Shown here: positions 26,162 to 63,289 of the stretch, piece after piece
Layout: each line of letters begins with the position of its first letter
How positions within the stretch are numbered: the stretch's first letter is position 1
Assembly (NCBI GenBank): GCA_902623535.1
Contig: CACNUA010000002.1
Span: forward strand, 74,222 to 138,221
Length of the DNA stretch: 64,000 nucleotides
Direction of reading: 5' to 3'
Origin: an uncultured SAR86 cluster bacterium
GTDB lineage: Bacteria; Pseudomonadota; Gammaproteobacteria; Magnimaribacterales; D2472
The notes under the pieces: generated by a model
Seen by the model: the letters and a program-made list of their open reading frames with translations, nothing else
Told to the model about the DNA's origin: nothing
Database searches by the model: none
Made by a program: the position numbers and the translations under genes

Positions 26162-26616
26162 TTATTCTTCCTTTTGTTACGAAAGAAATCTTGCAGTAAC
26201 TCAATTGACTCTTTTTCTAAATATCCCCCTTCGGAAATAACTTTATGATTATGAAATGAACTGTCATAAAAATTATCTACTGATTTAATTGATCCAGTCT
26301 TTGGCTCTCGTGCTCCATAATAAAGATTCGAAATTCTTGCATGAATTATTGCTGATGCACACATGTGACATGGTTCCAATGTACAGTAAATTGATGCATC
26401 TATTAGCCTATAATTTGAAATTTTATGACATGCATTCTCTATAGCATTTATTTCAGCATGCTGTGTAGGTGAATTTTTCTCAATGCACCTATTCCTTCCT
26501 AAAGCAATAACCTCATTATTAATTGCAATGACGCAACCAACCGGAACCTCTCCACTAGAAAATGAAATTTTAGCTTGCTCTAAAGCTAATCTCATGAATT
26601 TTTCATTGTAGGCCAA
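26158..26616 (-). CDS. tadA: tRNA adenosine(34) deaminase
   Basis: 152 aa with the HAEINAI and TLEPCHMCASAI CDA zinc motifs and TadA length. Confidence 0.9.
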   Translation of the reverse strand: MAYNEKFMRLALEQAKISFSSGEVPVGCVIAINNEVIALGRNRCIEKNSPTQHAEINAIENACHKISNYRLIDASIYCTLEPCHMCASAIIHARISNLYYGAREPKTGSIKSVDNFYDSSFHNHKVISEGGYLEKESIELLQDFFRNKRKNN

Positions 26617-26620
26617 AAAA

Positions 26621-28660
26621 CTAGTTTAATCTTTTGAATCCACCATGCGAAAGTGGGAAGTCTATTAATTGATCGATTGAACCAGATTTATTGTATTGAT
26701 TTGATATCTTGGAAATTGTATCTTCAAAGGCATCAAGATAGCTTGAAAGGATTTGATCTGAATGCTCAGTGCAAAGGTAAATAGCATTTGATGCAAGGAA
26801 CCCTTTTTGAAGCATATCATGAGTAATGAATGACTTTATCTTGAGGAAATCGTTTTGTTGTGAGGAAAAGGATGGTAAAGGATCGAGACCAGAAATCTCA
26901 AAATTTAAATCATGATCACTAAATATCTTTTTCCAAGATTTTTTTATTTCTTTACCTTTTTTGCAAACAACTTCCCAAGATTTGACTTGATTCATTTCTT
27001 TTAAACTAGCTATTGCAGCAGTTGGGCCGATTCTTTCAGTCCAAAATGTACTGCTTATAAATGAACTTTGAGCATGATCCATCACTTCTTTTTTGCCGAC
27101 AATAGAGGTTATCGCATAACCATTGCCTAATGTTTTGCCATAAATTGCAATATCAGGTTGAACGTTAAATTTTTGATGCAAACCTGAATTTGTTTCCCTA
27201 AAACCTGATGTGCATTCGTCAAAAATCAGAACTATATTATTTTTATTAGCTAATTGACGCACCTCTTCAAGAAAATTATTTTTGGGAGGATCATTGCGCA
27301 TAACTTCCATTTTAATAATACCTATTTCATTATTCTTAATTAAAGTTTTTAAACCCTCAAGATCATTGTATTGAAATGAAAAAGAAGTACCCTCTAAATT
27401 TCTTGGTACGCCGTTAGGCTCTAGTCCAGGCAATAGGTGACCATCAAGATCCTTTGATTTTCCTAGATTTGCAGAGAGGTACCAATCGTGCCAACCATGA
27501 TAACCACAAATTGCAACATTATCTTTCCCAGATGCCGCTCTTGCAATTCTAATAGCAATAGAGTTCGCTTCACCTCCTGTTCTTGCGTACTTAACCATAT
27601 CAGCCCAAGGGTTGAGTTCAATTAATTGTTCGGCTAAATAAACTTCTTCGGGACAATTAAGGGTTGATAAATTACCTGATTCTACGGTTTTCAAGACTGC
27701 ACTATCTACTGCTGAGTTAGCATAACCAAGTAAATTGGTACCAACTCCCATTAAACAAACATCAAAATATTTTTTCTTATCCAGATCCCAAACTGTACAC
27801 CCCTTTGATTTACTAAAATATGAAGGCCATTTATCTGGCAAAAACATCTCTGGTCTCTTGGAAAGAAGCATATTTCCCCCAGGAATTATTTCTTTGGCTT
27901 TTTTATAAAGTTTTTGACCGGAGCTCACAGATGATCCCTCATTTCTTTTAAGGTGTTGGTTAGCAGTAAATAGTTTTTCATTGCGTTTGTATAAATTAAT
28001 TATCTCATCATATGAGAAAAAAATATCGTCAAAATTATCAAAAACATTTTTTATGACCGATAAGTCAGATTTATCGTCCAATGTTAGTCGTAATTCAGAA
28101 TAGTTTATTTGTGACTTTACATTTATTTTCTTAATGCTTTTTTCTTTTTTAGCAAATGTAGTTACATGCTCTCTATCAAATAATTTAGAAGCATTATTAT
28201 GTGAAGTTTGAATAAGTTCTTTTGTAAAAACTTCTATATCGAGGCCATCGGGATAAGTTGGAGGATTAGTATTGCTTAAGTAATCGACATTTGAGTTATT
28301 GAATTTTTCTAAAAAAGTATCAACCAAAATCGGATCTACAAAAGGACAATCGCCTGTAATTCTTACGATTGTTGTTAAATTATATTGAACGGCACAATTA
28401 TGGAACCTTTCAAGAACATCATTTTCTGAACCGACAAAAAATTTAATGTCCTTAGCCTCAAGAAGCTCTTTTAAGTCTTCATTTTCTTTATTATTGGGGA
28501 TTGCAACAATAATTTCATCAAGCTTCTTTGATTTTTTTAATCTCTCTACAATTATCTCAATTACTGACAATCCCTTGAATTCTTTTAAAACTTTTCTTGG
28601 AAGCCTCGTAGAAGTTAGTCTGGCTTGAATAATTGCTGCAATCAATTTAGTTGCATCCAT
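26621..28660 (-). CDS. bifunctional protein: SpsF/NeuA-like cytidylyltransferase domain fused to a class III (GSA-aminomutase-like) PLP aminotransferase
   Basis: Residues ~1-240 carry AAIIQARLTSTRLPRKVLKEF...ITGDCPFVDP (CTP_transf_3/SpsF-like). Residues ~247-679 carry KAKEIIPGGNMLLSKRP..., GGEANSIAIRIARA and IFDECTSGF (class III aminotransferase, HemL-like). Confidence 0.75.
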   Translation of the reverse strand: MDATKLIAAIIQARLTSTRLPRKVLKEFKGLSVIEIIVERLKKSKKLDEIIVAIPNNKENEDLKELLEAKDIKFFVGSENDVLERFHNCAVQYNLTTIVRITGDCPFVDPILVDTFLEKFNNSNVDYLSNTNPPTYPDGLDIEVFTKELIQTSHNNASKLFDREHVTTFAKKEKSIKKINVKSQINYSELRLTLDDKSDLSVIKNVFDNFDDIFFSYDEIINLYKRNEKLFTANQHLKRNEGSSVSSGQKLYKKAKEIIPGGNMLLSKRPEMFLPDKWPSYFSKSKGCTVWDLDKKKYFDVCLMGVGTNLLGYANSAVDSAVLKTVESGNLSTLNCPEEVYLAEQLIELNPWADMVKYARTGGEANSIAIRIARAASGKDNVAICGYHGWHDWYLSANLGKSKDLDGHLLPGLEPNGVPRNLEGTSFSFQYNDLEGLKTLIKNNEIGIIKMEVMRNDPPKNNFLEEVRQLANKNNIVLIFDECTSGFRETNSGLHQKFNVQPDIAIYGKTLGNGYAITSIVGKKEVMDHAQSSFISSTFWTERIGPTAAIASLKEMNQVKSWEVVCKKGKEIKKSWKKIFSDHDLNFEISGLDPLPSFSSQQNDFLKIKSFITHDMLQKGFLASNAIYLCTEHSDQILSSYLDAFEDTISKISNQYNKSGSIDQLIDFPLSHGGFKRLN

Positions 28661-30222
28661 TTAGATGGATTGAGAAGCTGCTCATCATCACAGGAAATAT
28701 CAGGAAAAATAAATGGTCTGTTTGATTGATCAAAGGATTGAGTTAAATCATTGAGGTGCTCGATATTATCTAGACCAACAATTACCTTATCAATCTGAGG
28801 AATCGATAATGGATAATGAAGGCAGGCCGCTAATGGAGAAACCTCATTATCATCCAGCCAATTATGCCAATCATTCCAAAGATTTTTCCATTTACTAAAT
28901 CTAGGTGGGATGTTTTCTCTTGTCAGTAGTAAGAGCCCTTGAAGAAATATAGATCTTGCATGAATTTCTACTCCAGCATCATGAAGCCTATTCAACCAAC
29001 CAGTTTCTAATAATCTTCTGTCTATGATATTGAAAGGTACTTGAACAATGTCTAAATCAATCAATGTAGAGGCTTTCGCTATCTCTTCTGGTGTGTATGC
29101 AGATAAACCTATTTTTTCTATAAGCCCTTCGGATTTAAGATCCATAAAGGTCTTGTTAAAAATTTTACCAAGCTCCTCTATCTGTGATGAATCATGCAAA
29201 AGTAATCCATATGCTTTATTAACATTCAATCTTTCAAGCGAAGATTTAACTTGACTGACAATCCAATCTGGAATGTCAGTAATCCCACCTGGTATTTGTG
29301 GAAGTTTAGTGATGACATACTTATTTTTCATACCAATTTTACCCAAACATTCCTCGCTATCACCATATGAAATAGAAGTATCATAAGTATCTATTCCATG
29401 ATCTTCAGCAATTTTTACAATCTTTGATGCTGTATTAAAATCAACCTGCCCATCATTGTTTGCAACTCCATACGGCATGCCAAATTGCACAGTTCCAATC
29501 GCAATCCTATTCATCTTCTCCTTTGAAAGTTTTATCTGAAAAAGCTGTTCAGCAAACTCAAAGTCATCGGGGGTATCAATATCCACTGCCCTATGCTTTG
29601 GAATAATTAGCATCGAGGAGTTGTTATGGAATTCATCCTCTCCAGAAAGTACTTGTTCTACCTTTGAAAGATATAGTTGTGCTGCATCATGATAGGCTGC
29701 CTCACAGTCTTGAGTTCTAGTGAGAATATAATCGGGTTGAAACATTTCAATTTTATCTTGCTCATTAACAAAAACTGCTCTTTGGATTGGATAGTTATAC
29801 TCTTTGCAAGCAACTATGCTTTTAGAATCAGTCTTTCTCATAAGATTAATCGCTTTTTCTATATCTGTTTCTGTTATAAAAACTGCTGTTGGATAAATAG
29901 TAAGTATCAAGTCTGGCTTGCCTACATTTTTTACATACCACTCTGTAGCATGCTTAATCACCTCTTTTGTACCAGTTTGATCATCTGCAAGCTCAGACGG
30001 CCTAAGGAATGGTACCGTTGCACCATATTGCTCGGCTATTATTTTAATTTTTTTACTTTCTGTTGAGACAATAATGTCATTTACGTAGTTAGAAGCTTTA
30101 AGAACAGAAATAGGCCAGCTAATCATTGGCTGATTACAAAACTCTTTAATATTTTTTAAAGGTATCCTTTCACTTCCACCTCTAGCTGGCAAAATTGCAA
30201 GAATATTCAAATTATCTTTCAT
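28642..30222 (-). CDS. bifunctional protein: N-acylneuraminate(NeuA)-type cytidylyltransferase fused to an aldo/keto reductase
   Basis: Residues 1-~230 carry LAILPARGGSERIPLKNIKEF...PFLRPSELADDQT (NeuA/PseF-like). Residues from Met237 carry MNRIAIGTVQFGMPYG...DTSISYGDSEE (AKR). An AAGGAG-N3-ATG sits exactly at the domain junction (29523..29512). Confidence 0.75.
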   Translation of the reverse strand: MKDNLNILAILPARGGSERIPLKNIKEFCNQPMISWPISVLKASNYVNDIIVSTESKKIKIIAEQYGATVPFLRPSELADDQTGTKEVIKHATEWYVKNVGKPDLILTIYPTAVFITETDIEKAINLMRKTDSKSIVACKEYNYPIQRAVFVNEQDKIEMFQPDYILTRTQDCEAAYHDAAQLYLSKVEQVLSGEDEFHNNSSMLIIPKHRAVDIDTPDDFEFAEQLFQIKLSKEKMNRIAIGTVQFGMPYGVANNDGQVDFNTASKIVKIAEDHGIDTYDTSISYGDSEECLGKIGMKNKYVITKLPQIPGGITDIPDWIVSQVKSSLERLNVNKAYGLLLHDSSQIEELGKIFNKTFMDLKSEGLIEKIGLSAYTPEEIAKASTLIDLDIVQVPFNIIDRRLLETGWLNRLHDAGVEIHARSIFLQGLLLLTRENIPPRFSKWKNLWNDWHNWLDDNEVSPLAACLHYPLSIPQIDKVIVGLDNIEHLNDLTQSFDQSNRPFIFPDISCDDEQLLNPSKWMQLN

Positions 30223-30243: not shown

Positions 30244-31542
30244 TTATGAAAACAACTTCACAAAATTATTAAATAATTCAATGTTTTCATTTCTATGAAC
30301 TTGTTTTGAAGAATTATTATTTCTTGAGCTCATAACGTCGTTTAACATTGAAATTAACCTATTTTCTACAAAAAAATATTGTTTTCCTAGATTTAGATCC
30401 TGAGTTATTGGCTTAAGTCTCCCTGATGCCAAGCCACATAATGAATCTAATGCTATTATTGGCAAAAATGCAGAAATCTCATTTCTAAGCTCATTAATAC
30501 ATTCATAATCATCTGGATTAAAGCTCATTAATTGAACTAAGGGTCCCTCATCAAGACCTTCAGTCATCAGATGAGTGTTCAACGCAATAGCATCTAGACG
30601 CCCATCAAGTAATGGTGACTCAACAACATCCATCCCTTTATAGTAAGGGAGTAATCCCATGTGGGTGTTAATTACTTTATTATTTAAGTTTTCAAGAGTA
30701 ATTTGATTAATAAGGCCACCCCCAGTAAATATTGTAAAAATATTGTCGGTGGCTGAAAGTTTTTCAATTTCTGAAAAATCTCTTATCTTGAAATAATTTA
30801 TCTTATTAACTCTAGAGAATTTCTTTAGATCTTTGTAATTGGAGATTAATTTATAGAGTTTTTTTAAACTAATCTTAGAAACATAATTATTTTCATCTCC
30901 TCTAATTACTAGTTTGCGCCAAATTCGTTTTGTAAAAAGTTTAATGCCATCTCTTTTGAGTTCATAAAAAAATCTCTTAGGGGTGAATTTGAGGACATAT
31001 ATTCCAATTATTTCAATATCAAGTTTTTTACATAATTCAGCTACTGTTAGAGAAAATAAACTAAATGCAGTTGGGCATAAAATAATCACACCTTTTATAT
31101 GTGTGCTCTCAGAATATAGGTGATCAAAATTATTAGTCAATTGAGGAGATAACTTCTGTAGCTTAATTTTTAATTCGTTATCAATTAATGCTTGCTTAAT
31201 TTCTGCAACAATATCTTTAGTGTATCCATTTAACTTTGGTGGACTTGATAAAGCATTATCTATAAGCATAAATGCGTTAAGGTAACTATTATCAAAGGGT
31301 GGCGATTTGTGATTCTTTTTTATCTCTGATTTAAATATTTTTGCATACCACATTAATTCATCTTCATGTGCAAACCCAAATCTTGATTTAGATTCTGAGT
31401 ACAAATTATGATTGTAGAATGATACATACCGCCTTAACTTTTCAAGCCATTTTTTTCCTAAAATAGTATTTGTTTGAATTTCAGATTCGATAACGAGTTT
31501 TTCTTCCTTAGTTAGGGTCCTCAAAATTTTGGGAACTTGCAT
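30244..31542 (-). CDS. formyltransferase-domain protein with an uncharacterised N-terminal extension
   Basis: 432 aa. The C-terminal half has VINTHMGLLPYYKGMDVVESPLLDG...THLMTEGLDEGPL, resembling the Fmt/ArnA/sugar N-formyltransferase core (N-x-H ... D). The first ~150 aa have no motif I recognise. Confidence 0.55.
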   Translation of the reverse strand: MQVPKILRTLTKEEKLVIESEIQTNTILGKKWLEKLRRYVSFYNHNLYSESKSRFGFAHEDELMWYAKIFKSEIKKNHKSPPFDNSYLNAFMLIDNALSSPPKLNGYTKDIVAEIKQALIDNELKIKLQKLSPQLTNNFDHLYSESTHIKGVIILCPTAFSLFSLTVAELCKKLDIEIIGIYVLKFTPKRFFYELKRDGIKLFTKRIWRKLVIRGDENNYVSKISLKKLYKLISNYKDLKKFSRVNKINYFKIRDFSEIEKLSATDNIFTIFTGGGLINQITLENLNNKVINTHMGLLPYYKGMDVVESPLLDGRLDAIALNTHLMTEGLDEGPLVQLMSFNPDDYECINELRNEISAFLPIIALDSLCGLASGRLKPITQDLNLGKQYFFVENRLISMLNDVMSSRNNNSSKQVHRNENIELFNNFVKLFS

Positions 31543-31545
31543 TTA

Positions 31546-32574
31546 CTAGTTTTCCTTGATTGAACAATGCCATGAACGCCCATCAAGTCCTAATAAAGCC
31601 TCACCGGAAATTGTAAAGTCATCTTTAGTTTGATGTCCTTCAGAGAAAGAAATCACACCGAATTTAAATAAAACCATTGGAAGGAAATCTTTTTTAAAAC
31701 TAGCAATTTGATACCAGTTTGAGAGATCATTAGAATAAAAAATCTTTGAATGCTTTGACTTAACTGCACTTCCAGGTTCAATTGAAGTTTGAACAAGATA
31801 AGAACCATCACCTAGTCTTTTTGTATACCAAACTGGAGCATCAAATGACTTACCTTGACTGAGCTCCATAGTATTTCTATCTAAAATTTGGAGTTTTGGA
31901 GATTCATTGGGAGAATCCATAATCCAATAAATTTTATCCTCCCTAAACATTAATGAGACAGTTCTCCATTTCTGCGAGCCATCACCATGAAATTTTGGAT
32001 TCGAGAAATCCTCATCTGAAAACTCAATTAAAAAGCATTCACCATCATTATCACCAGTGGTAATCCAGATCGAATTTTTATAATGGTCTTTGTAGGCTCC
32101 GTGAATATGCTTAATATTTTTTATTTCATTTACAACTTTGAAAGATTCACCATCATCTCTGGATACCCATAGAGGAACATCATTCCCGGTTGTATTTCTT
32201 CCATACTCACCAAAGACAATACATCCTTTGCTTATTGCGATTGAATTATGAAGAACACAGCGAGATTGTCTTAACTTGGATAAAGTCTTCAATGATTTTT
32301 TTTTGATATGAAAACTGTAAATCATTCCCTGATATATAACTATCACAACAGTTTTCTTATAATTAAAGAAGGCATTTGATTTATCTAGTCGAAATAACCT
32401 TCTAAAGATTCTAAGTTTAAGAAATGGATTGTTGTTTTTAATTTTGAAGTAAATTACTTCTTTATTAAGTGAAAATTCAAAAGCATTTCCATTACTAACT
32501 ATATAGTCACCAGTTAGAGAATCATAAAAATGAATTATTTCATATCTCATCAAGTTTCTTTTAATGATTTGCAT
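31546..32574 (-). CDS. hypothetical protein, probably beta-propeller with Asp-box-like motifs
   Basis: 342 aa with one good Asp-box (VSRDDGESF) and degenerate ones (HGDGSQKW, TGDNDGECF, RLGDGSYL). No confident family assignment. Confidence 0.4.
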   Translation of the reverse strand: MQIIKRNLMRYEIIHFYDSLTGDYIVSNGNAFEFSLNKEVIYFKIKNNNPFLKLRIFRRLFRLDKSNAFFNYKKTVVIVIYQGMIYSFHIKKKSLKTLSKLRQSRCVLHNSIAISKGCIVFGEYGRNTTGNDVPLWVSRDDGESFKVVNEIKNIKHIHGAYKDHYKNSIWITTGDNDGECFLIEFSDEDFSNPKFHGDGSQKWRTVSLMFREDKIYWIMDSPNESPKLQILDRNTMELSQGKSFDAPVWYTKRLGDGSYLVQTSIEPGSAVKSKHSKIFYSNDLSNWYQIASFKKDFLPMVLFKFGVISFSEGHQTKDDFTISGEALLGLDGRSWHCSIKEN

Positions 32575-32750: not shown

Positions 32751-33314
32751 CTAGGAAACTTCATAAGTATCAGAACCAATAATTGAATCAATTACTGAAG
32801 TTAGCCAAATCATATGTATACACTCAACAATGTTGTAAGCATGGCTATCAACCCAAAAACTAATATCAGATATTTTTGACAACGAGTTTGTAGCTTCCCT
32901 GCCAGTGAAAGTTATAACTTTAAGACCCATTTTTTTTGCGGTTTCTGCACCCTTTACAAGATTTAAAGACTCCCCGCTTACACTAATGAGAATTACAGCA
33001 TCATTACTATTTGCATAAATATTTAATGCTTCAGAAACCCAATTTTCATAGCCATAATCATTAGACAAGCATGTAATAAGATTTGCTTCATTAAATGTTA
33101 AAGATTTTATTTTTGCTTGTTTAGAAAAATCAACTGCTCCGTGAGCAGATATTGAAGCACTGGCACCATTACCAGCAAATATAAGTTTTGAATTATTTTT
33201 TTTTACCTCTTTAACAATATCCTCGAAAGCTAAGAGGTTATTTTCAAGATTTTCATTGATTAAAAGATGATTATATTTTTTAAAATAGTCTTTATAGAAT
33301 TTATTTAAAATCAT
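32751..33314 (-). CDS. SIS-domain sugar-phosphate isomerase (GmhA-like)
   Basis: 187 aa. FAGNGASASISAHGAVDF and ILISVSGES are typical of the phosphoheptose isomerase-type SIS domain. No CBS domains are present. Confidence 0.7.
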   Translation of the reverse strand: MILNKFYKDYFKKYNHLLINENLENNLLAFEDIVKEVKKNNSKLIFAGNGASASISAHGAVDFSKQAKIKSLTFNEANLITCLSNDYGYENWVSEALNIYANSNDAVILISVSGESLNLVKGAETAKKMGLKVITFTGREATNSLSKISDISFWVDSHAYNIVECIHMIWLTSVIDSIIGSDTYEVS

Positions 33315-33337: not shown

Positions 33338-34375
33338 TTAATCATGTTCAGGTATAGAAAATTTTGTTTTCCATTTTGAGTCACTTGTATAAATTTTATT
33401 TACCAATTTCATGGTTCTTAGTGCGTCTATAGGACTTCCGTTTTTAACTTCTTTATTCTTAATGATTATATTTAAAAAATAATCAACTTCGGACTGCCAT
33501 GAAGGATCATTATTATATTTAATTATTTGCTCTGTGGGATCTCCCATATCATTATCTGGGTCTGATTCAATGATGGTTAAGGTTTCTGCGCCATAACTTT
33601 TTGAGCCAGATAGGATGCCACCTAAAATTAGCGATCCTTTTTCAAAATTTATTTCTAGATTAAATTTGTGCCTCCACTGAGTTGCTGAGGAATGAATAAA
33701 CGCCACAACACCAGATTTAGTTTGCATTAATGCATATGCATTATCTTCTACATCATGTTTCCAAAAATCATTTGAAACAAAGCTATGTATTCTTTCAAAT
33801 TCTCCACCAAATAATCTCATAAGATCAAGCATATGAATACCTTGATCAAGCAGTACACCACCACCCGCAATTTTTCTCTTAGTTCTCCATATAGGCTGAT
33901 TAAATGTAATTAGTTTTGACTTACCATAGGTACCTTTTAAATTAATTATTCTTCCCATTTTCTTAGAATTTATAATTCTTTGTGCCTCTAAAACCGAATC
34001 ATGATATCGATGATTAAAACCATACATTAGTTTCAGTGAAGGGTTTTCGTTGTAAACCTCTATAACTTTGCTAATATCATCTACAGATCTGCCAGGTGGC
34101 TTTTCACAAAAAACATGGATTCCTTTATGTAACGCCTTTATTGTTACCTTAGGTGCAATATCATTTGGCATACAAATAAATATTGCATCAATCGAATCCT
34201 TGAGTAATTCTTCATAATTTTCATGTACGTCAATCCCTTCAAGTTTGAGGGGCTGTTTTTTAAACTTCTCATCACAAATACTTACAACTGTTGCATATTG
34301 ATGATTCTGTAGACAATCAAATCTTTTTGATCCCACAACTCCAAAGCCTGCAATACCAATTTTAAGTCTTTTCAT
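33338..34375 (-). CDS. Gfo/Idh/MocA family NAD(P)-dependent oxidoreductase
   Basis: LKIGIAGFGVVGSKRF Rossmann N-terminus and the CEKPPGRS (EKP) motif. Confidence 0.8.
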   Translation of the reverse strand: MKRLKIGIAGFGVVGSKRFDCLQNHQYATVVSICDEKFKKQPLKLEGIDVHENYEELLKDSIDAIFICMPNDIAPKVTIKALHKGIHVFCEKPPGRSVDDISKVIEVYNENPSLKLMYGFNHRYHDSVLEAQRIINSKKMGRIINLKGTYGKSKLITFNQPIWRTKRKIAGGGVLLDQGIHMLDLMRLFGGEFERIHSFVSNDFWKHDVEDNAYALMQTKSGVVAFIHSSATQWRHKFNLEINFEKGSLILGGILSGSKSYGAETLTIIESDPDNDMGDPTEQIIKYNNDPSWQSEVDYFLNIIIKNKEVKNGSPIDALRTMKLVNKIYTSDSKWKTKFSIPEHD

Positions 34376-34390
34376 ATTTCCTATATTAAT

Positions 34391-36187
34391 CTAAAAACTC
34401 CTAAAAAAATTGACCCATTCACTTGTTGAGTTTTTTGAAACTGTATTACATATCTCGTTAAAGAATTTTCTGGATTCAATTATTTCACTTGAATTCCACC
34501 ACTCATGCTCATGTTGGAAAATATTTTCAAGATGATCTGCTGCAAATTTTGGATCAGTATGGATTATTTTTTTTGTCTTTAGGTCGCTGATAAGTTCTAA
34601 ATACATTGAATCAATCTCCCACAAATCCTCTCTAAATAGCAAAATTGTTGGCACACCAGAGTACATACCTTCAGAGAAAGTAGTTTGAGGATATCCAGAA
34701 ATGATAAGTCTTGAGTTTTGGATTATTGAATTCAAATCGTTATTTCTTGAAATAATTTCCTTCCCAAATGTTTGTATGTATGAATGCTCTAAGTGCCAAC
34801 TTCCAAGGTACTTCGGTTTTACCTTTAGTAAATCAAGAACATTTTTTGAGAGCAATTTTAAGAAGCTTAGCTTTTGAATATGTTCCTCTAGAACAAGAGG
34901 CCCAACTGGAGCTCCAACAGCCCTGTAGGAATATTTAACACTTTCAAAATCAAATAAGGTGATTTTATCTTCTTTCTTGAAAGGTATTTTCCTTCTAATG
35001 CTCAGCTTATTTGGTGGCAATCTCGTGTAATTGTTATTTAGTTCTTTTCCCCATGAAACATTTACATCTGCAATATCCTCTAGATGATCCATTGTATTCA
35101 TTTTGAGTTGAAAGCTACCTCCGTGTTCAAGGATAATAAATTTAGCACCTCTTAAAATTTGCTGTGATGTCCAGACTTTAAATAGTTCGTTATACCAATA
35201 GCTATAGCCTGTAATAATTGTCTTAGCAGGCAATTCCTTTAAAGATTTTTTTTCAATGTATTGATATTCTTCAAGATATGCATAAGGTAGATGATTCCAA
35301 ATAATTTCAAAAAGAAATTCTTCAAATTCATTTTTTGAGCGCAATCCATTAATGGAGAATTTAGATCTATTTTTGTGTTTCTTTATATGTAATTGCTTTC
35401 TAAAGTTGATATAAAAAAGAGGAAATGTTTTTAAAGACAGCAGAATCTTAGAAAAAAATTTTTTGTTAAATCCAGACTCGTAAAAAACAAACCTTTTTTT
35501 ATAACCAATGAGAAAAATAATTTTTTTTATAATTTCCTCAAAAAAATTAATAAAAAAATAAAAAAATTTTTTTGTAATATTTTTTGTTGGATTAAATTTC
35601 TTTCTAAAGATATTTTTTTCAAAGATATTTTTTTTATAAAGAATATTAAATTCTTTATTTGGAAATTGACTGATTAAGATTTCTGAAAAAATCTTGTAGT
35701 TCCAAGCATCGTCATCCAGCAAACTTCGAAATTCAATAAAATCTTTTGGTATGGGCTGACTGTCAACTAAAATTCTACAATCAAAATCTTCTCCAAAATC
35801 GTGCTTAATTGATCTTATGATCTCCCACCTGTCAAAAATTACAGATATAAAATTTATCAACCAAGGCCCCAAAATAATTCTCCAATAATTTTTTGGATAT
35901 GTCTTTTTATGAACTTTGTTTAAATGATTGGAAAGATTATTTAGGACTTTTTCTTTAAGCTCATACAAATACCTATAATCTCTCCTAAACTTTTCTCTGT
36001 CTTCCCAATGATATTTAAGGCATCTTATTTTATCCTGTCTCCAATTTTTATCTTTGAGATTTAAACACCAATTACCTAGAAGAAATGATTGATTATTTGA
36101 TAGTCCCTCTGTATCGAGTGGAGAAATAACTATATAAGATGAGGGTAAAGAGTTTTTTTTACTGAATGCATAAATGCTATCTTTCAT
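34391..36187 (-). CDS. uncharacterised ~600-aa putative transferase (paralog A; possibly LIC12162-type family)
   Basis: Clear paralog of ORF 38098..39897. Shared blocks: YHW(E/N)DR, YWRII(L/I)GPWL, VIFDRW, (E/A)HGG, RLPPNKL, YPQTT(F/L)SE, SG(V/I)PTILL, WWNS. From memory this resembles the TIGR04331 putative O-antigen transferase family. Unverified. Confidence 0.5.
   Translation of the reverse strand: MKDSIYAFSKKNSLPSSYIVISPLDTEGLSNNQSFLLGNWCLNLKDKNWRQDKIRCLKYHWEDREKFRRDYRYLYELKEKVLNNLSNHLNKVHKKTYPKNYWRIILGPWLINFISVIFDRWEIIRSIKHDFGEDFDCRILVDSQPIPKDFIEFRSLLDDDAWNYKIFSEILISQFPNKEFNILYKKNIFEKNIFRKKFNPTKNITKKFFYFFINFFEEIIKKIIFLIGYKKRFVFYESGFNKKFFSKILLSLKTFPLFYINFRKQLHIKKHKNRSKFSINGLRSKNEFEEFLFEIIWNHLPYAYLEEYQYIEKKSLKELPAKTIITGYSYWYNELFKVWTSQQILRGAKFIILEHGGSFQLKMNTMDHLEDIADVNVSWGKELNNNYTRLPPNKLSIRRKIPFKKEDKITLFDFESVKYSYRAVGAPVGPLVLEEHIQKLSFLKLLSKNVLDLLKVKPKYLGSWHLEHSYIQTFGKEIISRNNDLNSIIQNSRLIISGYPQTTFSEGMYSGVPTILLFREDLWEIDSMYLELISDLKTKKIIHTDPKFAADHLENIFQHEHEWWNSSEIIESRKFFNEICNTVSKNSTSEWVNFFRSF
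35606..35635. repeat. 15-nt tandem duplication (AAAGATATTTTTTTC / AAAGATATTTTTTTT) inside CDS 34391..36187
   Basis: Read directly from the sequence, 14/15 identical. It encodes the repeated NIFEK/NIFRK on the minus strand and sits in a ~150-bp stretch packed with A7-8/T7-8 runs. Confidence 0.8.
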
Positions 36188-36191
36188 CAGC

Positions 36192-38021
36192 CTAGGAAGA
36201 CTTTACATAAATAACATCCACCCAATCAGTCCTTCCATTCATTGGATTTTTTGAAATATGAGAGATGTCATATAACTTAAAGCCAAATGGATTGAGTAAA
36301 GATTCAAGCTCATGAAAAGAAAGTTGCTTTTCATAATAATCATAAAACTTAACCTCTGAAATTATAATATCGATAATTGAAAGGCTTTTCCCTAGACCCT
36401 TAAGAATATCAATTTCAAAACTCTGCGTATCAAGTTTTAATAAATTAATTCTTTTAATGTTATTCTCATTGATATATTCATCCAAATTTTTGACCATGAC
36501 TTTTCGGGGATGATTGATAGTCTCAGAGTAGTTTTTAAGTGGTTTATCTTCACTAATAATTTTATTTAAATCTATTGAATCCTTGCTCTTCAAATTAATT
36601 TTGTTGAATCCAGAGATGCCTGAGTTCAAATCATGCGTATAAAATTCTTTATCTTTTTCAGTAATTTCTCCTGCTGCAAATTTATTAACTATAATTTCTG
36701 AGTATTGATTGGCTAACTGATCAAGTGATTCCCAACATTCATGCTGAGGCTCAAAGCAATGAATAGTAGATTTAGGCCATATTTGCTTAAATTGCAAAAT
36801 TGAAACACCATCATTTGAACCAACATCAAAAATTACTGGATCATCAATCTCAATAAGATATTTAAGTACCTTTTCTCTGTTAAATTTTTCAAAATATTCT
36901 TGTGTTCTTAATTTATTCTGACCTAAATCAACTGGGGTTAATTTTTCTGTTTCCTCGTTATCTTGTTTTGATACAACTTTTTTAGCCAATACCGCCATAT
37001 GCGAGCTGGCGCCAAGTTCCCTAATTACATTTTGGAAAACTGCAAGGCTTTGTTTAGATTTAATTGACTTTAAATGGGTAAATGTACTGCTCTCGTTCTG
37101 GAGGAAGTTTTTAATAATATCTATATCAAAATTACCAGGGGTTGAGATATCTTTAACCTCAAAGTTAGCCCTTAATAAAAAATGTGTAATATTCTGGGTT
37201 GTAAAAGCTTGAAGATGCATTGGAGGAAAAATACCATGAGCTAATGGTCTAAATTCATTATAACCAATAGCTTGATTATCTAAACCCAGTGCGTTTGGAG
37301 TCTGAAAATACATCAGACCATTATCATTCAGTAAATCTCTTAATGAAGTAATAAATAAAAAAGGATCATGTAGGTGCTCTAGTAATTCAAAGTGAAGTAT
37401 CAGATCAAAGGAGTTTTTGTTTTTTTTAACATAATCCTCAACAGATGTATGAGATAAATTCAGATTATGGCTTATTGGGTTATTTATAGCATTTTCGTCA
37501 ATGTCAATTCCATAGAGTTCAATCTTTGAAGATAGTCCTAGGCCATCTATCGCAACATCAAGTTCATGAAGAAATGCTCCTGAACTGCAGCCAACATCTA
37601 AAACTTTTATAGTTTTTTGTGATGTATTTTGAAGAAGATCTTTAATTTGGTTTAATACTAAATCTGTTCTTTCACTGAGAATAACTCCTCCCACACCTGA
37701 TCTTGCTTTAAGAAGTTTTTCAAATTTTTTATTACACTCACAAAAATTATAATAAAAATCTAAGGCCTTAAGATTTGGTGCTGGGTTTACATAGTTAGTT
37801 AGGCATTTCTTGCATTGAGAAATATCATAACGATCATCAAATTTTGCAAGATTATTCTGTTCTTCAGAACCGCATACGGGACATTTCCTGCTATAAAAAT
37901 CATTAGAAAACTTATCAAATACCTTTCGACTATCAGAAATCCTTAAGTTATAAATATTTCTTGCCTGCTCAATAGTCCTGTTTTCTTTCAAAAAAGATAT
38001 GTAGTTAATTTTTTCTTTCAT
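36192..38021 (-). CDS. double methyltransferase: Zn-ribbon plus class I SAM-MTase domain fused to an FkbM-family MTase domain
   Basis: CPVCGS...CKKC, then motif I VLDVGCSSGAFL (residues ~140-150). After a linker around residues 349-370 there is a second MTase domain with VIFDVGSNDGVS (FkbM-type). Confidence 0.7.
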   Translation of the reverse strand: MKEKINYISFLKENRTIEQARNIYNLRISDSRKVFDKFSNDFYSRKCPVCGSEEQNNLAKFDDRYDISQCKKCLTNYVNPAPNLKALDFYYNFCECNKKFEKLLKARSGVGGVILSERTDLVLNQIKDLLQNTSQKTIKVLDVGCSSGAFLHELDVAIDGLGLSSKIELYGIDIDENAINNPISHNLNLSHTSVEDYVKKNKNSFDLILHFELLEHLHDPFLFITSLRDLLNDNGLMYFQTPNALGLDNQAIGYNEFRPLAHGIFPPMHLQAFTTQNITHFLLRANFEVKDISTPGNFDIDIIKNFLQNESSTFTHLKSIKSKQSLAVFQNVIRELGASSHMAVLAKKVVSKQDNEETEKLTPVDLGQNKLRTQEYFEKFNREKVLKYLIEIDDPVIFDVGSNDGVSILQFKQIWPKSTIHCFEPQHECWESLDQLANQYSEIIVNKFAAGEITEKDKEFYTHDLNSGISGFNKINLKSKDSIDLNKIISEDKPLKNYSETINHPRKVMVKNLDEYINENNIKRINLLKLDTQSFEIDILKGLGKSLSIIDIIISEVKFYDYYEKQLSFHELESLLNPFGFKLYDISHISKNPMNGRTDWVDVIYVKSS

Positions 38022-38097
38022 AGATTTCTATAAACTGATAAATAATCGGGTCATAATTAAACATGTTAGGTCGAGCTAAAACCTATTAGCAAACAAA

Positions 38098-39897
38098 TTA
38101 TGCATTTTTAAAGTCAATAAAAAAGTCTGACCAAGCCTTAATAGGTTTTTTGTGCTCTGTTAAACAAATTTTTTTAAATTCGTGAATTGCCTCCCTACAA
38201 AGATCACTATTCCACCATAATAATGGATCATTATGTATTTTATTAATATGTTTTGCTGCATCTTTTGGGCACGTATGATAAATGTTTGCTTTTTTTAGGA
38301 TATCAACTACCTCGTTGTGAAGATCAATGACTTCAAACAATTCTTCTTTCATCAGCAAAATTGTAGGTATGCCTGAGAAGATTGATTCTGAAAGTGTAGT
38401 CTGTGGATAGGTGCATATTATTATTTTTGATTTTTTTATTACAGGAATAAATTTTGCATCATTTAGTAAATTTTTATTTCCAAAATAGTGAGCAAGCTTC
38501 TTTTGATCTAATACATCACGACCATCAATATAAGCAGGTGGAGTCTTTATTCTTAATTTATCTCTGGCATTTTTATCAAGATGATTTGAGAAATCTTTCC
38601 ACTGATACAATAGTTGCTTAATTTGAGACGAGCCTAAGGCTTGTGATGTAAGCCTAGAACATAGTATAGGTCCATTAAAGGCAACAAGGGTAATTAAAGA
38701 ATTTTTTTTATACTTCCAATTTTTAAAAAAAAGTTTGTTAGGTGGTAATCGGTGATGATTTTCCACCCACTCTTTCCCCCAAACAATTTTTTTGTCGCTT
38801 ATTTTTTCTTGATGATTAAAAACACTGTACTTTGGATAAAGTCCACCCCCATGTGCAGATACTATAATATTCGAACCATTTCTTTTGCACTCTGCCATCC
38901 AGATTTTAAATAAGTCATTATTAAAGTGAGCGTTTGATGTGAAAATTAGTTTTGTCTGTTTAATATTCGATTGCAGGGAATGTAATTCATCAAAATCTTC
39001 TAGGTATGTTTTTGGTATATCTTTTGAGATTCTGCTACACAAAAATTTCTCGAAATCATTTACATAATCAAATTGCGACAAAAATTCATAACCTAAAACT
39101 TCACTATTGCCTTTTGCTTTTATGCTTAAAGAATTATAGGATCTTGGCAAAACTCCTAATTTCAAAGCAAGCCTAAAATGAAAAAATTTTGGAAAGTAAG
39201 TGTGATAGAGAGTTATAAAACCATCATTTTTGAGTAAGAATTTATTAATAAATTTTGCAAGTAAATCATAAATTCTTATAAGCCTCTGTTTAATAGCAAA
39301 AACGTAACCATCTTCGTTTAGGCGTTTATCGTTGGTTTTTGGCTTATAAAGGTAATTACTTTCTATAACATCGAGTTCTACATTATCAAATTTTCTAAAA
39401 AAAAGTATTGATGAAAATAATTCGTAATTCCACTCTTGTTGTGAAAATATTGGAATAGCCTCATTATATTCAAGTGGTGGACTTCTTCTGTTGTTTAAAA
39501 TTATTGATGCTTTAAAGTTACGTTTTTCTCTCTTAATACAGTCAGATACACTCCATCTGTCAAATATCACACCAATATATTGAAGGAGCCAAGGACCTAT
39601 TATAATTCTCCAGTAATCAACACTCCTTTCTTTTGCGTGGATTTTAGATAATTCAATTGATAGCTCTTTGAGAATCTTTTCATATAATTTTTCAAGATAT
39701 TGATGATCTAGTTTAATTTTATTTCTATCATTCCAATGATATTCAAAAAAAGAGTAATTTTTAAGAATATCAAAATTGTTAAAAAAAGGAGAAATGCACC
39801 ACTCGCCAATAAAGAAATTGTTCACATTATTCAGTGCATCTTCTTTATTTCCATAAATAACTAAGTTGACTGGTTTGATATAATGCATTCTCTCCAT
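38098..39897 (-). CDS. uncharacterised ~600-aa putative transferase (paralog B)
   Basis: Paralog of ORF 34391..36187 (see the shared motif blocks there). Its start codon overlaps the start codon of the divergent sulfotransferase gene (CATG at 39895..39898). An alternative Met lies at residue 4. Confidence 0.5.
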   Translation of the reverse strand: MERMHYIKPVNLVIYGNKEDALNNVNNFFIGEWCISPFFNNFDILKNYSFFEYHWNDRNKIKLDHQYLEKLYEKILKELSIELSKIHAKERSVDYWRIIIGPWLLQYIGVIFDRWSVSDCIKREKRNFKASIILNNRRSPPLEYNEAIPIFSQQEWNYELFSSILFFRKFDNVELDVIESNYLYKPKTNDKRLNEDGYVFAIKQRLIRIYDLLAKFINKFLLKNDGFITLYHTYFPKFFHFRLALKLGVLPRSYNSLSIKAKGNSEVLGYEFLSQFDYVNDFEKFLCSRISKDIPKTYLEDFDELHSLQSNIKQTKLIFTSNAHFNNDLFKIWMAECKRNGSNIIVSAHGGGLYPKYSVFNHQEKISDKKIVWGKEWVENHHRLPPNKLFFKNWKYKKNSLITLVAFNGPILCSRLTSQALGSSQIKQLLYQWKDFSNHLDKNARDKLRIKTPPAYIDGRDVLDQKKLAHYFGNKNLLNDAKFIPVIKKSKIIICTYPQTTLSESIFSGIPTILLMKEELFEVIDLHNEVVDILKKANIYHTCPKDAAKHINKIHNDPLLWWNSDLCREAIHEFKKICLTEHKKPIKAWSDFFIDFKNA

Positions 39898-40954
39898 GAA
39901 AAAATTTATAAAAAAAGTATTAATTAATGTACTTGGAATAAGGTTTTTTAACTTAATTATACCCCTAGTCAGTTCTACAGAGCATAATATAAAGAAATTC
40001 TCATATTCTTTAAATTACACTTTTTTTAAAGATAAAAATCACGATTATATTAAAGTTAACCAGCCTCTATTACTGATAACTCAAGTGCAAAGAAGTGGAG
40101 GCACATTAATATCTCAACTTCTCGATAATCATAGAGAATTACATGCTTTTCCTAGCGAACTAATTCTTACAAATCCAAAGTGGGATTGGTCAAAAAAGAA
40201 AAATTTTATTTCCTATAGATCTAGAGAAATGAGAGAGTATTCAGAATTAGGTTTCTATATCAAAAGATCCAAAGCAAATAATGATTTAGCAAATAAATTT
40301 GACTTTGATCTTTTAAAGCAAAGATCCATTTATGAAAGTATTTCGAAGAAAACTGAACGCGACTATTTCAATGCATATTTCACATCATTTTTTAATAGCT
40401 TTGATAATTATATTAACAACGGAAAGAATAAAAAATTTATTTCGGCATTTACTCCACGTGCAATAATGTATGACAAAACAATATCAAATTTTTTTTCAAT
40501 TTATCCAGATGGTCACATAGTTACGGTTGTAAGAAATCCATTGTCGTGGCTTGCGAGTGCTACAAAACATGATAAAAAATATAAAAAAGATTTAAATGCC
40601 TCTATTTCGATTTGGAAAAAATCAACTAAAGCATCGATTACTAATGCCATATCAAATCAAAATATAACTCTTATTATATTTGAAGACTTTTTAGAAGATA
40701 TTGAGCTTGGTGTGCTAAAACTTTGTAAAAGATTAAATTTAAGCTTTGAAAAAAGTTTACTAACACCAACATTTAATGGAAACCCTGTACTCTCAGATTC
40801 TTCATTCAAAGCATCAAAAGGAATTGACAAGTCTGCATTAGACAGATCAAAGCTTATAGATATGTCTAAAATAGACACAGTATTGATTGAGGAAGTAAAT
40901 GCACTGTATGAAGAAGCTCAGCAAGTTGTAAAAAAATTATACGGTGATAATTAA
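39896..40954 (+). CDS. sulfotransferase family protein
   Basis: 352 aa with a PAPS 5'-PSB loop (TQVQRSGGTLISQLLDNH) and a 3'-PB motif (VVRNPLSWLASA). Confidence 0.7.
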   Translation: MKKFIKKVLINVLGIRFFNLIIPLVSSTEHNIKKFSYSLNYTFFKDKNHDYIKVNQPLLLITQVQRSGGTLISQLLDNHRELHAFPSELILTNPKWDWSKKKNFISYRSREMREYSELGFYIKRSKANNDLANKFDFDLLKQRSIYESISKKTERDYFNAYFTSFFNSFDNYINNGKNKKFISAFTPRAIMYDKTISNFFSIYPDGHIVTVVRNPLSWLASATKHDKKYKKDLNASISIWKKSTKASITNAISNQNITLIIFEDFLEDIELGVLKLCKRLNLSFEKSLLTPTFNGNPVLSDSSFKASKGIDKSALDRSKLIDMSKIDTVLIEEVNALYEEAQQVVKKLYGDN

Positions 40955-41037: not shown

Positions 41038-41697
41038 TCATTTATTTAAGTTTTTTTCTTTAAACAATAATTGAATTGACATTCTTTGATGAAGATCTTC
41101 ATTAAAATAAAAACCATTTTCTGAAAAAGATAACTTATTTATCAATGTAAATTGAGATGTTTTTGTAAATGAGTGACTATGATCAAGTTTATTTATTTTG
41201 TTTAAATCTTTATGGTGTATGTATTCATTTGTAATCTTATGGGGCGTATCAAAATCATAAATTGATAAGAATCCACCAGATTTAAGAACTCTGTTAATTT
41301 CTGATATTGTTTTGGAATAATATTCACCTTCTAATAAATATAAAAAAAAGCCAAGATGAATATAGTCAAATGATTTCTCTTCGAACATGCTAAGGTCGTA
41401 AGATACTCCATTAAATAATTTAAGATCTGGATATAATTCAGAAGCATATCGATTGGCTTTATCGCTTGGATCAATCCCATAACCCTTTAATGATAACTCT
41501 TTGCTCAAGTAGTTCAGAACAAAACAAGAGCCAGATCCAATCTCTAACATATTTGTTAATTTATGCTTTGAGCACAAAGGTTTCATCCAAACTACTAAGG
41601 ATTCAAACTGCGATTTTTCTCTATCATTAAGTCTAGATAAATTCCTTTCATGGTAATCATTTCCATGCTCTCTTAGAATTTTGAAAAAACTACTCAT
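41038..41697 (-). CDS. class I SAM-dependent methyltransferase
   Basis: 219 aa with motif I MLEIGSGSCFVLNYL, a post-I acidic GIDPS, and LKSGGFLSIYDF. Confidence 0.7.
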   Translation of the reverse strand: MSSFFKILREHGNDYHERNLSRLNDREKSQFESLVVWMKPLCSKHKLTNMLEIGSGSCFVLNYLSKELSLKGYGIDPSDKANRYASELYPDLKLFNGVSYDLSMFEEKSFDYIHLGFFLYLLEGEYYSKTISEINRVLKSGGFLSIYDFDTPHKITNEYIHHKDLNKINKLDHSHSFTKTSQFTLINKLSFSENGFYFNEDLHQRMSIQLLFKEKNLNK

Positions 41698-43067: not shown

Positions 43068-44648
43068 TTATTCCCACTCAATAGTGGCAGGTGGTTTGCC
43101 TGAAATGTCATAAACTACCCTGCTTACTCCTTCTAATTCATTTACGATTCTGTTTGATACTCTGCTTAAAAAGTCAAACGGTAGCTTTGACCATTCAGCA
43201 GTCATAAAGTCAACTGTCTTTACAGACCTTAAAGCTATAACATCTGCATAACGCCGCTCATCTCCAACTACACCAACAGATTTTACTGGCAGGTATACAC
43301 AAAATGCTTGGCTAACCTCATCATAAAAACCTTCCTTTTTTAATTCATCAATAAAAATTGAGTCTGCCTCTTGAAGTATGGAAATCTTTTCCTGATTTAT
43401 CTCACCCAATATTCTTACTCCTAGTCCAGGACCAGGGAAGGGATGTCTTTTAAGTATTTCATCGGGTAAGCCTAAGAGAGCACCCATTTTTCTGACCTCA
43501 TCTTTAAATAGGTCCCTGAGAGGTTCTACTAAATTCATCTTCATTTCTTCTGGTAAGCCACCTACGTTATGGTGTGACTTAATAATTCTTGCTTCTTTAG
43601 ATTCAGACTCAGATGATTCAATCACATCCGGATAAATTGTTCCTTGTGCTAAGAAACTTATCTCACTGGAAGCATGTAAATTTACTGATTCATTATCAAA
43701 AATATCTATGAAAGTCCTGCCAATTACTTTTCTTTTTTGCTCAGGATCAGTTACGCCCTTGAGGTGTCTTAAAAATGTTTTTTTTGCATCGACAACTTCA
43801 AGATTTAGATCAATTTTATTTTTAAAGAGATCTATCACCTCCTGGACTTCATTTTTTCTTAATAGGCCATTATCAACAAACATGCAAATTAGATTTTTAC
43901 CTATCGCTCTATCGAGCAACATAGCAGTAACAGATGAATCGACGCCTCCAGATAATCCTAACAAAACTTTTTTATCTCCAACTTGGGCTTTAATTTCCTT
44001 TATTCTTTGGTTAATTAAATCGTCTAATACCCATGTCTTTTTTGATTTACAAATTTCTATAGTGAAGTTTTCTATGATTTTTTGACCCTTATCTGTATGT
44101 GTTACTTCTGGATGGAATTGAAGAGCATAATAAGGCTTATCTTTATGTTCCATAGCCGCAATGGGCGCAGATTCAGTTGAAGCACTCAAGACAAAATCGT
44201 CAGGTAAGATTGAAACATGATCTCCATGACTCATCCAAACATCTAGATTACCAGTATCTAGACCATTAAAGATTTTTGATGAATGCTCGATCTTTAATTC
44301 TGCGAAACCAAACTCCTTCTTAGAGGAAGTTTGTACGCTTCCTCCATTTTGCTCTGCAAGTGTTTGCATCCCATAACAAATGCCGAGAATAGGAATATCT
44401 AAGTTAAAAATAATTTCTGGAATCCTTGGAGTATTTTCTTTAGTTACGGATTCAGGTCCTCCAGAAAGAATAACGCCCTTTGGACTTAATGAGGATATTT
44501 TATCTAGTGCAATATCCCATGGAAATATTTCTGAATATACTCCCAACTCTCTCACTCTTCTAGCTATTAATTGAGTATATTGAGATCCAAAGTCTAAAAC
44601 TAAAATAGTATCAAGATCTGACTTAGACAAAGTATTATTAATTCTCAT
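43068..44648 (-). CDS. guaA: GMP synthase (glutamine-hydrolysing)
   Basis: 526 aa. It has a class I GATase domain (ILGICYGMQ), an ATP-PPase loop ([11 protein letters not shown]) and the canonical C-terminus [10 protein letters not shown]. Confidence 0.95.
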
Positions 44649-63208: not shown

Positions 63209-63289
63209 TAGTCATATTATAATTAAGTTTTAATGAATAACTTTAAATTTGAATCTATGGAAGATTTTTAATCAAATACATATTTTTTA

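Follow-up and report, generated by a model that had tools for sequence, protein, structure and literature searches.

LIC12162-family paralogs of an uncultured SAR86 bacterium as candidates for the attachment of sialic-acid-like sugars to the cell surface

Introduction

Which protein would carry out the transfer step in a gene island that encodes two cytidylyltransferases and a suite of sugar-modifying enzymes? The question is raised by a 64,000-nucleotide stretch of DNA (hereafter, the window) from an uncultured SAR86 cluster bacterium (GenBank assembly GCA_902623535.1, contig CACNUA010000002.1, positions 74,222 to 138,221). The first-pass annotation of this stretch, made from the sequence alone, singled out two paralogous genes, here denoted LIC-A (34391..36187, minus strand, 598 amino acids) and LIC-B (38098..39897, minus strand, 599 amino acids), which bracket a double methyltransferase gene, as the only candidates in the island for the missing transfer or polymerization step. 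The products were proposed to represent a novel transferase family with a GT-B-like or TagF-like C-terminal half. The analysis described here assigns both proteins to the already known LIC12162 family, predicts that they adopt the GT-B fold, and ranks them as the leading candidates for the enzymes that attach sialic-acid-like sugars to the cell surface.

Family membership and conserved residues

Both open reading frames (ORFs) were found exactly where the first-pass annotation had placed them; the coding strand, which had not been given, is the minus strand, and the plus-strand translation of both intervals is riddled with stop codons. In public gene calls, LIC-B begins at Met4 and accordingly comprises 596 amino acids (P0018). 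The two proteins can be aligned over their full length (32% identity over 593 residues with 21 gaps, BLASTP E=5e-85), and all the shared blocks that were originally read from the translations are present, namely YHWEDR/YHWNDR, YWRIILGPWL/YWRIIIGPWL, VIFDRW, EHGG/AHGG, RLPPNKL, YPQTTFSE/YPQTTLSE, SGVPTILL/SGIPTILL and WWNS.

The resemblance to the TIGR04331 profile ("LIC12162 family transferase"; 585 positions, curated cutoff 225 bits), which the first-pass annotation had suggested, is borne out by scores of 346.5 bits for LIC-A (profile positions 11-585) and 328.5 bits for LIC-B (positions 2-585). The homologs, which span 566-622 amino acids, are all annotated as PF27859:LIC12162. By sequence, then, LIC-A and LIC-B are members of a known and large family, and the notion of a novel one has to be abandoned given that the family is already curated both in NCBIfam (TIGR04331) and in Pfam (PF27859), with about 9,200 representatives. 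Specifically, when a 52-member profile was run against the representatives of 50%-identity clusters (with the best 150 matches listed), 9,182 of them were detected at E<=1e-3, of which 4,722 also passed the stricter threshold of E<=1e-30. A Pfam scan of LIC-A and LIC-B at E<=1 retrieved no family, including PF04464 (TagF), PF05159 and the standard glycosyltransferase (GT) families; however, the Pfam-A release scanned predates PF27859, so this lack of a match does not imply novelty. In a genome scan, the closest homologs come from SAR86 and other Gammaproteobacteria (35-44% identity), and additional members are encoded in Leptospira, Prochlorococcus, Chlorobium, Nitrospina, Bacteroidota, Elusimicrobia and a metagenome-assembled genome of Methanocalculus. 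Judging from the nearest relatives and the GC content, the source of the window would be a SAR86-like marine gammaproteobacterium. The window itself thus contributes two more members to a catalogued family, which is an ordinary result. The word "transferase" in the family name appears to rest on context.

Among 196 family sequences, 45 alignment columns reach a conservation of 85% or more. The conserved polar residues are H60, D70, H93, D119-R120, N163, E306, K337, H355-G-G, T502, E506 and P513-T, and the conserved tryptophans are W40, W102, W109, W379 and W563-W564. All of these are present in both LIC-A and LIC-B, so that both copies in the window are likely to be functional and neither appears to be a decayed duplicate.

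Predicted fold

The AlphaFold2 model of LIC-A, which was built from a 52-sequence alignment, has a mean predicted local distance difference test (pLDDT) score of 91.3 and a predicted template modeling (pTM) score of 0.92. In a Foldseek comparison of this model with the PDB, 25 matches were obtained at E<=1e-3, all of them to GT-B fold proteins: 6eji (E 4e-6), OtsA, MurG, MGD1, WaaG, GT1 enzymes, VldE and UDP-GlcNAc 2-epimerases (UDP, uridine diphosphate). The Foldseek probability was 1.00 for 6eji, OtsA, MurG and WaaG. The entry 6eji, whose deposited title is "Structure of a glycosyltransferase", presumably represents Campylobacter PglH. The modeled LIC-A chain is mostly helical over its first ~400 residues, with few beta-strands, and the long conserved helices 64-93 and 99-131 carry the YWRIILGPWL...FDRW region.

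When residues 400-598 were modeled separately (pLDDT 91.1), the matches were to the nucleotide-binding C-domains of WaaG, UGT2B7, UGT2B15, LpcC, PglH and 2-epimerases, with query-normalized TM-scores of 0.43-0.57; the first-ranked match was the UDP-GlcNAc 2-epimerase 1f6d (E 1e-3). The PQTT-x-SE...G-x-PTILL block lies within the modeled domain that superposes on these nucleotide-binding domains, in agreement with its earlier assignment to a donor-binding half. The C-domain search was also meant to show whether the donor domain resembles CMP-dependent enzymes (CMP, cytidine monophosphate), but the matches were confined to generic UDP-binding GT-B domains (E>=1e-3) and did not discriminate the donor. 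Taken together, the models predict a two-Rossmann-domain GT-B architecture of ~600 amino acids for LIC-A and LIC-B. Of the two relationships suggested at the outset, the one to GT-B enzymes is therefore supported by the Foldseek matches, whereas the specific one to TagF is not, as there is neither a PF04464 match at E<=1 nor a TagF entry among the 50 Foldseek matches listed. No confident match to a non-transferase family was detected by sequence.

Genomic context of the LIC12162 genes

The neighborhoods of LIC12162 genes were explored with hidden Markov models (HMMs) derived from Pfam-annotated seeds in 80 genome loci, and the counts refer to the 45 of them that comprise 18 kb of sequence or more. 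Within 10 kb of the LIC12162 gene, the nonulosonate synthase NeuB is encoded in 38 of these 45 loci and a CTP_transf_3 protein, the co-occurrence that had been singled out for tabulation, in 35 of 45. The other genes found within this distance are less frequent: DegT aminotransferase (21/45), SIS (19/45), GFO/IDH/MocA (16/45), PseG-like (11/45) and HpcH/HpaI aldolase (10/45). The median gap between the LIC12162 and NeuB genes is 4.2 kb, and 50 of the 53 NeuB genes share the strand of the LIC12162 gene.

A further scan with Pfam, analyzed in two halves, covered the 278 other proteins that the 38 NeuB-positive loci encode on the same strand at a distance of up to 5 kb. The typical neighbors are short-chain dehydrogenases/reductases (SDRs; 20 in the first half and 18 in the second), class-I methyltransferases (about 12 and about 16), the Epimerase family, which includes PseB-like dehydratases (8 and 10), AP_endonuc_2 (7 and 8), class-III aminotransferases (6 and 7) and Radical SAM proteins (7 and 4). 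Glycos_transf_1 and Glycos_transf_2 were represented by 3 proteins each in the second half and by fewer than 4 in the first, outside the top 25 families. LIC12162 is the sole GT-like gene in loci L002, L004, L086 and L087, and in L085 it is the sole one besides PseG. In the clinical strain Herbaspirillum AU14040, a LIC12162-family gene directly follows neuABC, and the authors of that study suggest that it could transfer Neu5Ac to lipopolysaccharide (PMC6679464).

In several loci (L002:3626-9977, L003, L004:1-5178 and L087:5549-9946), a recurrent gene set accompanies LIC12162 that consists of NeuB, CTP_transf_3, a class-IV aminotransferase (Aminotran_4), a xylose-isomerase-like TIM-barrel protein (AP_endonuc_2) and two SDRs, often together with Radical SAM/SPASM, HMGL-like and GDSL genes. 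No recognizable PseG or NeuC was found in the sets of these four loci, and this combination may represent an undescribed variant of the nonulosonate pathway.

Paired and fused copies

Two LIC12162 ORFs in one locus are rare (3 of the 80 loci) and, given that the pair in L067 looks like a single split gene, only L005 and L006 remain. These are also the loci closest to the window, and both retain the module LIC12162 - FkbM methyltransferase - LIC12162 - GFO/IDH/MocA - SIS. The orthologs of the last two genes occupy the same position in L005-L008, with 56-66% identity for GFO/IDH/MocA and 49-64% for SIS_2. In the syntenic, SAR86-like loci L005 and L006, NeuB occupies a position three genes upstream of the leading LIC12162 copy; the window has sulfotransferase, methyltransferase and flavodoxin-like genes in place of this NeuB-bearing segment. 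Compared with the copies of L005 and L006, LIC-A and LIC-B each show 33-44% identity; the GFO-proximal copy of L005 is clearly closer to LIC-A (44%), and the remaining pairs are about equidistant (33-41%). Judging from these identities, the divergence of LIC-A and LIC-B is ancient.

Two LIC12162 domains, with halves that are 41% identical, are fused in P0052 (L089:1681-5355), a protein of 1224 amino acids that ranks first when a library of 1.84 billion proteins is searched with the family profile. Its gene adjoins a Methyltransf_23 gene and a 2-Hacid_dh/epimerase/HAD/HpcH module. By analogy, this fusion recalls two-module transferases such as KpsC, whose two GT107 modules differ in linkage specificity (PMC12887879).

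The island and other glycan-related genes in the window

Both paralogs belong to a tightly packed minus-strand gene run that is bounded by a tadA-like deaminase gene (26158..26616) and guaA (43068..44648). The GC content is 0.28-0.31 across 30-42 kb, compared to 0.34-0.39 in most of the flanking sequence. Pfam and NCBIfam scans detected no other GT-like gene in the island (26.6-42.5 kb), so the two LIC12162 genes retain their standing as its only candidates for the transfer step.

The gene between LIC-B and LIC-A (36192..38021, minus strand) encodes a fused double methyltransferase of 609 amino acids, as originally described, with a Methyltransf_23 domain (PF13489, 70.5 bits, residues 127-289) and an FkbM/Methyltransf_21 domain (PF05050, 58.8 bits, residues 399-583). 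Downstream of LIC-A, still on the minus strand, are the two remaining members of the conserved module identified by Pfam, a GFO/IDH/MocA oxidoreductase (33338..34375) and a GmhA-like sugar-phosphate isomerase of the SIS_2 family (32751..33314). These are followed by a 342-amino acid protein without a family assignment (31546..32574, minus strand) and a formyltransferase-like protein of 432 amino acids (30244..31542, minus strand; Formyl_trans_N, 28 bits against a gathering cutoff of 26.1). The 342-amino acid protein has no NCBIfam match and only a sub-threshold Pfam match to Sortilin-Vps10 (E 0.003), and could adopt a beta-propeller fold.

The two cytidylyltransferases noted in the first-pass annotation are both fusion proteins of the CTP_transf_3 family, encoded on the minus strand by genes that overlap by 19 nucleotides. 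One (28642..30222, 526 amino acids) combines a PseF-type CMP-nonulosonate synthetase and an aldo/keto reductase (Pfam CTP_transf_3 and Aldo_ket_red); its residues 8-229 score 246.1 bits against the PseF equivalog model TIGR03584, for which the cutoff is 205.7. In the other (26621..28660, 679 amino acids), CTP_transf_3 (PF02348, 97.6 bits) is fused to a class-III, GSA-like aminotransferase (PF00202, 110.9 bits). The latter fusion recurs in the LIC12162 locus L004 (19795-21701), with 49% identity; the aldo/keto reductase is a separate gene there, as opposed to its fusion with PseF in the window. Formyltransferase domains recur in L004, L085 and L088.

On the other side of LIC-B, a divergent gene (39896..40954, plus strand) encodes a Sulfotransferase_3 protein (PF13469, 46.8 bits). 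The called start of LIC-B (39897) and the sulfotransferase start (39896) share 2 nucleotides, which leaves no intergenic space for a promoter. A class-I methyltransferase gene (Methyltransf_11; 41038..41697, minus strand) and a flavodoxin-like gene are also found on this flank. LIC-B and its neighbors, including the sulfotransferase and Methyltransf_11 genes, are present in L001 as well, a contig of the NCBI metagenome assembly GCA_001757125.1, with 100% identity. Sulfotransferases are encoded in LIC12162 loci L004 and L085 as well. A second Sulfotransfer_3 protein in the window (9965..11671, plus strand, 568 amino acids) is fused to N-terminal tetratricopeptide (TPR) repeats.

At a distance of 16 kb from the paralogs, four minus-strand genes with overlapping starts and stops (56126..59280), identified from Pfam and NCBIfam matches, encode a KdsB-like CTP_transf_3 protein (NF003952, 206 bits against a cutoff of 193), a class-II pyruvate aldolase of the HpcH/HpaI family, a D-2-hydroxyacid dehydrogenase and a phosphatase of the IMPase family. 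A module of this type directly adjoins LIC12162 in the unrelated loci L085:16491-18043, L086:12610-17457 and L089:7305-10664, with HAD instead of IMPase and often with an FkbM methyltransferase, an aminotransferase, an epimerase and a Methyltransf_23 protein in addition. We know of no described pathway of this composition; it may allow the synthesis of a CMP-activated keto-deoxy acid independently of NeuB and is a possible source of a second donor of this kind. Finally, the edge of the window (60438..63871) encodes a PglF-like membrane 4,6-dehydratase (634 amino acids, Polysacc_synt_2), a 289-amino acid epimerase-like ORF and a 193-amino acid Bac_transf protein, which is a PglC-like initiating phosphoglycosyltransferase. 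With these genes, another polysaccharide locus begins that could provide the acceptor glycan.

Proposed function and alternative explanations

Based on the predicted fold and the genomic context, we consider it moderately probable that LIC-A and LIC-B are GT-B transferases which use a CMP-activated nonulosonic or other ulosonic acid as the donor, with the two copies accounting for two linkages or two donors, and that the methyl-, sulfo- and formyltransferases of the island decorate the sugar. Under this scenario, the C-terminal domain (approximately residues 400-560) would bind the activated-sugar nucleotide via the conserved T502-x3-E506 ... P513 block, the putative counterpart of the '...S/T-T-x-x-E...G-x-P' donor motif of MurG and GT1 enzymes. 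The helix-rich N-terminal ~400 residues would bind the acceptor, presumably a lipid-linked or polymeric surface glycan, and H355-G-G, E306 and K337, assumed to line the inter-domain cleft, would be candidate catalytic or phosphate-binding residues. The donor would most likely be a nonulosonic acid of the pseudaminic or legionaminic type, or else another CMP-ulosonic acid, with the PseF-type and CTP_transf_3 enzymes encoded nearby as its producers. Each of the paralogs would then add a different residue or form a different linkage, and the intervening and flanking methyltransferases, the sulfotransferase and the formyltransferase-like enzyme may act either on the sugar or on the product.

Several observations weigh against this scenario. 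The likeness of the LIC-A model to known GT-B structures is distant (query-normalized TM-score ~0.3, target-normalized at most 0.52, identity 7-15%), although a low TM-score is expected for a ~600-residue protein in which ~400 helix-rich N-terminal residues contain few strands. Non-transferase GT-B enzymes, the UDP-GlcNAc 2-epimerases, match equally well, and given that they share the fold, the fold alone is no proof of glycosyl transfer. GT-B sialyltransferases, WaaA, WbbB and KpsC are all absent from the 50 matches listed for either model, that is, the best 50 of 380 for the full model and the best 50 of 860 for the C-domain. Neither LIC-A alone nor the 52-sequence profile retrieved any PDB sequence at E<=10. 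The conserved histidine is followed by G-G in 95-98% of the 196 family sequences, and no HP is found among the conserved columns. An HMM that detects 64-67 NeuB copies in the compared loci found no NeuB/PseI/LegI homolog in the 64-kb window; the local donor pathway is thus incomplete, with a PseF equivalog and a second CTP_transf_3 protein but no NeuB, and the donor would have to come from genes in another part of the genome or from a different pathway. Co-localization, in itself, cannot tell the transfer of a sugar from its modification. As the first-pass annotation had surmised, our literature search turned up no biochemical study of a LIC12162 protein; the text of the paper on nonulosonic acids in Leptospira contains no LIC121xx locus tag and mentions no transferase.

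The alternatives differ in the substrate or in the reaction. LIC12162 proteins could be ordinary GT-B enzymes that use hexoses or hexosamines activated by a nucleoside diphosphate (NDP), such as the UDP, guanosine diphosphate (GDP) or deoxythymidine diphosphate (dTDP) derivatives, and build the glycan that receives or carries nonulosonic acid, in which case the proximity to NeuB and CTP_transf_3 would merely reflect a shared surface-polysaccharide locus. In favor of this option, all the structural neighbors among the matches listed are UDP- or TDP-dependent GT-B enzymes, and it fits with the presence of PseB/PglF-like dehydratases, NTP_transferase genes, flippases and ABC transporters in these loci, as well as with the PglF-like and PglC-like proteins encoded at 60-64 kb of the window. 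We nevertheless regard it as unlikely, given the tight and specific link to NeuB and CTP_transf_3 (38/45 and 35/45 loci, median gap about 4 kb) and the near absence, within 5 kb, of the other GTs that a multi-sugar repeat unit would require. Moreover, in the several loci where LIC12162 is the sole GT-like gene by a nonulosonic acid pathway, that sugar would be left without a transferase. The use of CDP-activated (cytidine diphosphate) donors by TagF/TagB-like polyol-phosphate or sugar-phosphate transferases, the other option of the first-pass annotation, appears very improbable. The TagF fold is a variant of GT-B with a similar arrangement of C-terminal motifs, and the genetically implicated pseudaminic/legionaminic acid (Pse/Leg) transferases of Tannerella are TagB-like (PMC5420450), but neither PF04464 nor any other Pfam family matched the paralogs at E<=1, and neither TagF nor TagB appears among the 50 Foldseek matches listed for either model (the best 50 of 380 and of 860). 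The local cytidylyltransferases are of the CMP-ulosonate type of CTP_transf_3, one of them a PseF equivalog, and none matches a CDP-glycerol or CDP-ribitol synthase family. The Tannerella enzymes, at 445 amino acids and with their TagB likeness, belong to a different family and were rejected as LIC12162 members.

It is also conceivable, albeit quite unlikely in our assessment, that LIC12162 proteins are not transferases at all but GT-B-fold enzymes of sugar biosynthesis or remodeling, either a hydrolase or hydrolyzing 2-epimerase responsible for the PseG/LegG/NeuC step or an enzyme that acts on the CMP-sugar. The UDP-GlcNAc 2-epimerases belong to the best-scoring structural neighbors, with one of them (1f6d) ranked first for the isolated C-domain, and the typical genomic neighbors are sugar-modifying enzymes such as SDRs, methyltransferases and aminotransferases. 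Furthermore, Epimerase_2 (NeuC/LegG) is not among the top 25 neighbor families, another observation that counts against a transferase, and PseG-like genes are found in just 11 of the 45 loci; the infrequency of Epimerase_2 leaves room for a biosynthetic role in loci without PseG. However, L085 encodes its own PseG along with PseC, PseF and NeuB, so that LIC12162 there is additional to most of the recognizable steps of the Pse pathway, and in Herbaspirillum the LIC12162 gene adjoins neuC (PMC6679464). The LIC12162 proteins are ~200 amino acids longer than the epimerases and hydrolases and show no detectable sequence similarity to them. Tandem paralogs and a fused double-domain protein are better compatible with transferases that form multiple linkages than with a single biosynthetic step, and the window contains two copies even though it encodes no NeuB to feed. 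There is, in addition, a slim chance that neither CMP-ulosonate transfer nor any of these alternatives is correct.

Comparison with known transferases and implications

In their full-length profile match, length of ~590 amino acids, invariant residues and context of sugar-modifying and cytidylyltransferase genes, LIC-A and LIC-B resemble the rest of the LIC12162 family; the window is peculiar in the tandem arrangement around a fused double methyltransferase and in the lack of NeuB. With the classical GT-B enzymes (GT4 PglH/WaaG, GT28 MurG/MGD1, GT20 OtsA and GT1), the family shares the predicted two-Rossmann architecture and a C-terminal beta-alpha-beta domain in which a helix starting with T-x3-E precedes a G-x-P strand. 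The LIC12162 proteins are, however, ~200 amino acids larger, have an N-terminal half expanded by the long conserved helices (64-131) and by further insertions, show no detectable sequence homology to these enzymes, and would probably bind CMP rather than UDP.

The signature motifs of ulosonic acid GTs are HP, QxxxKD and an aspartate nucleophile, and further families suitable for comparison are WaaA (GT30) and the GT-B sialyltransferases (GT38, GT52, GT80). The conserved set of LIC12162 is different: H-G-G, E306, K337, T502/E506 and WW. The characterized ulosonic acid transferases include GT99 WbbB, GT107 KpsC, GT118 KpsS1, which transfers Pse5Ac7Ac, and GT140 KrkA (PMC12887879). Two-module forms exist on both sides (KpsC on the one hand, P0052 and the tandem pair of the window on the other), the CMP-activated 2-keto-3-deoxy donor of these four families is also expected for LIC12162, and the helix-rich N-terminal half of LIC12162, with its few strands, may correspond to the added helices of their GT-B-derived fold. 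In contrast, the sequence searches gave no match to any of these families, and none of them is among the 50 structural matches listed. Similarly, the HP and D/E-D/E-G motifs of sialyltransferases (PMC5420450) are missing in LIC12162, and there is neither sequence similarity nor, among the matches listed, structural similarity to GT38, GT52 or GT80. The resemblance to these families and to the Tannerella enzymes, which contain a TagB superfamily domain (PMC5420450), lies in the proposed transfer of CMP-nonulosonate, the neighborhood of genes for CMP-nonulosonate synthesis and a conserved histidine that follows a beta-strand.

A broader and rather speculative possibility, which we consider doubtful, is that LIC12162 constitutes a new CAZy-level family of CMP-ulosonate GTs which serves both NeuB-derived acids and the putative, so far undescribed CMP-activated keto-deoxy acid of the HpcH module, with the paired and fused copies acting as a two-module polymerase of an acidic surface polymer in abundant marine bacteria such as SAR86.

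To our knowledge, only a handful of transferases of pseudaminic and legionaminic acids to lipopolysaccharide, capsule or non-flagellar glycoprotein have been described (Maf, FlmG, KpsS1/GT118 and the TagB-like Tannerella enzymes). With its predicted GT-B fold, the NeuB and CMP-synthetase genes located within ~4 kb in most loci, and its usual status as the sole GT-like gene, LIC12162 is a concrete and testable candidate for a missing transferase class. Such a class of transferases would be relevant to surface mimicry by pathogens and to glyco-engineering, and would bear on the hypervariable surface-glycan islands of abundant marine bacteria and on the interactions of these bacteria with phages and grazers.

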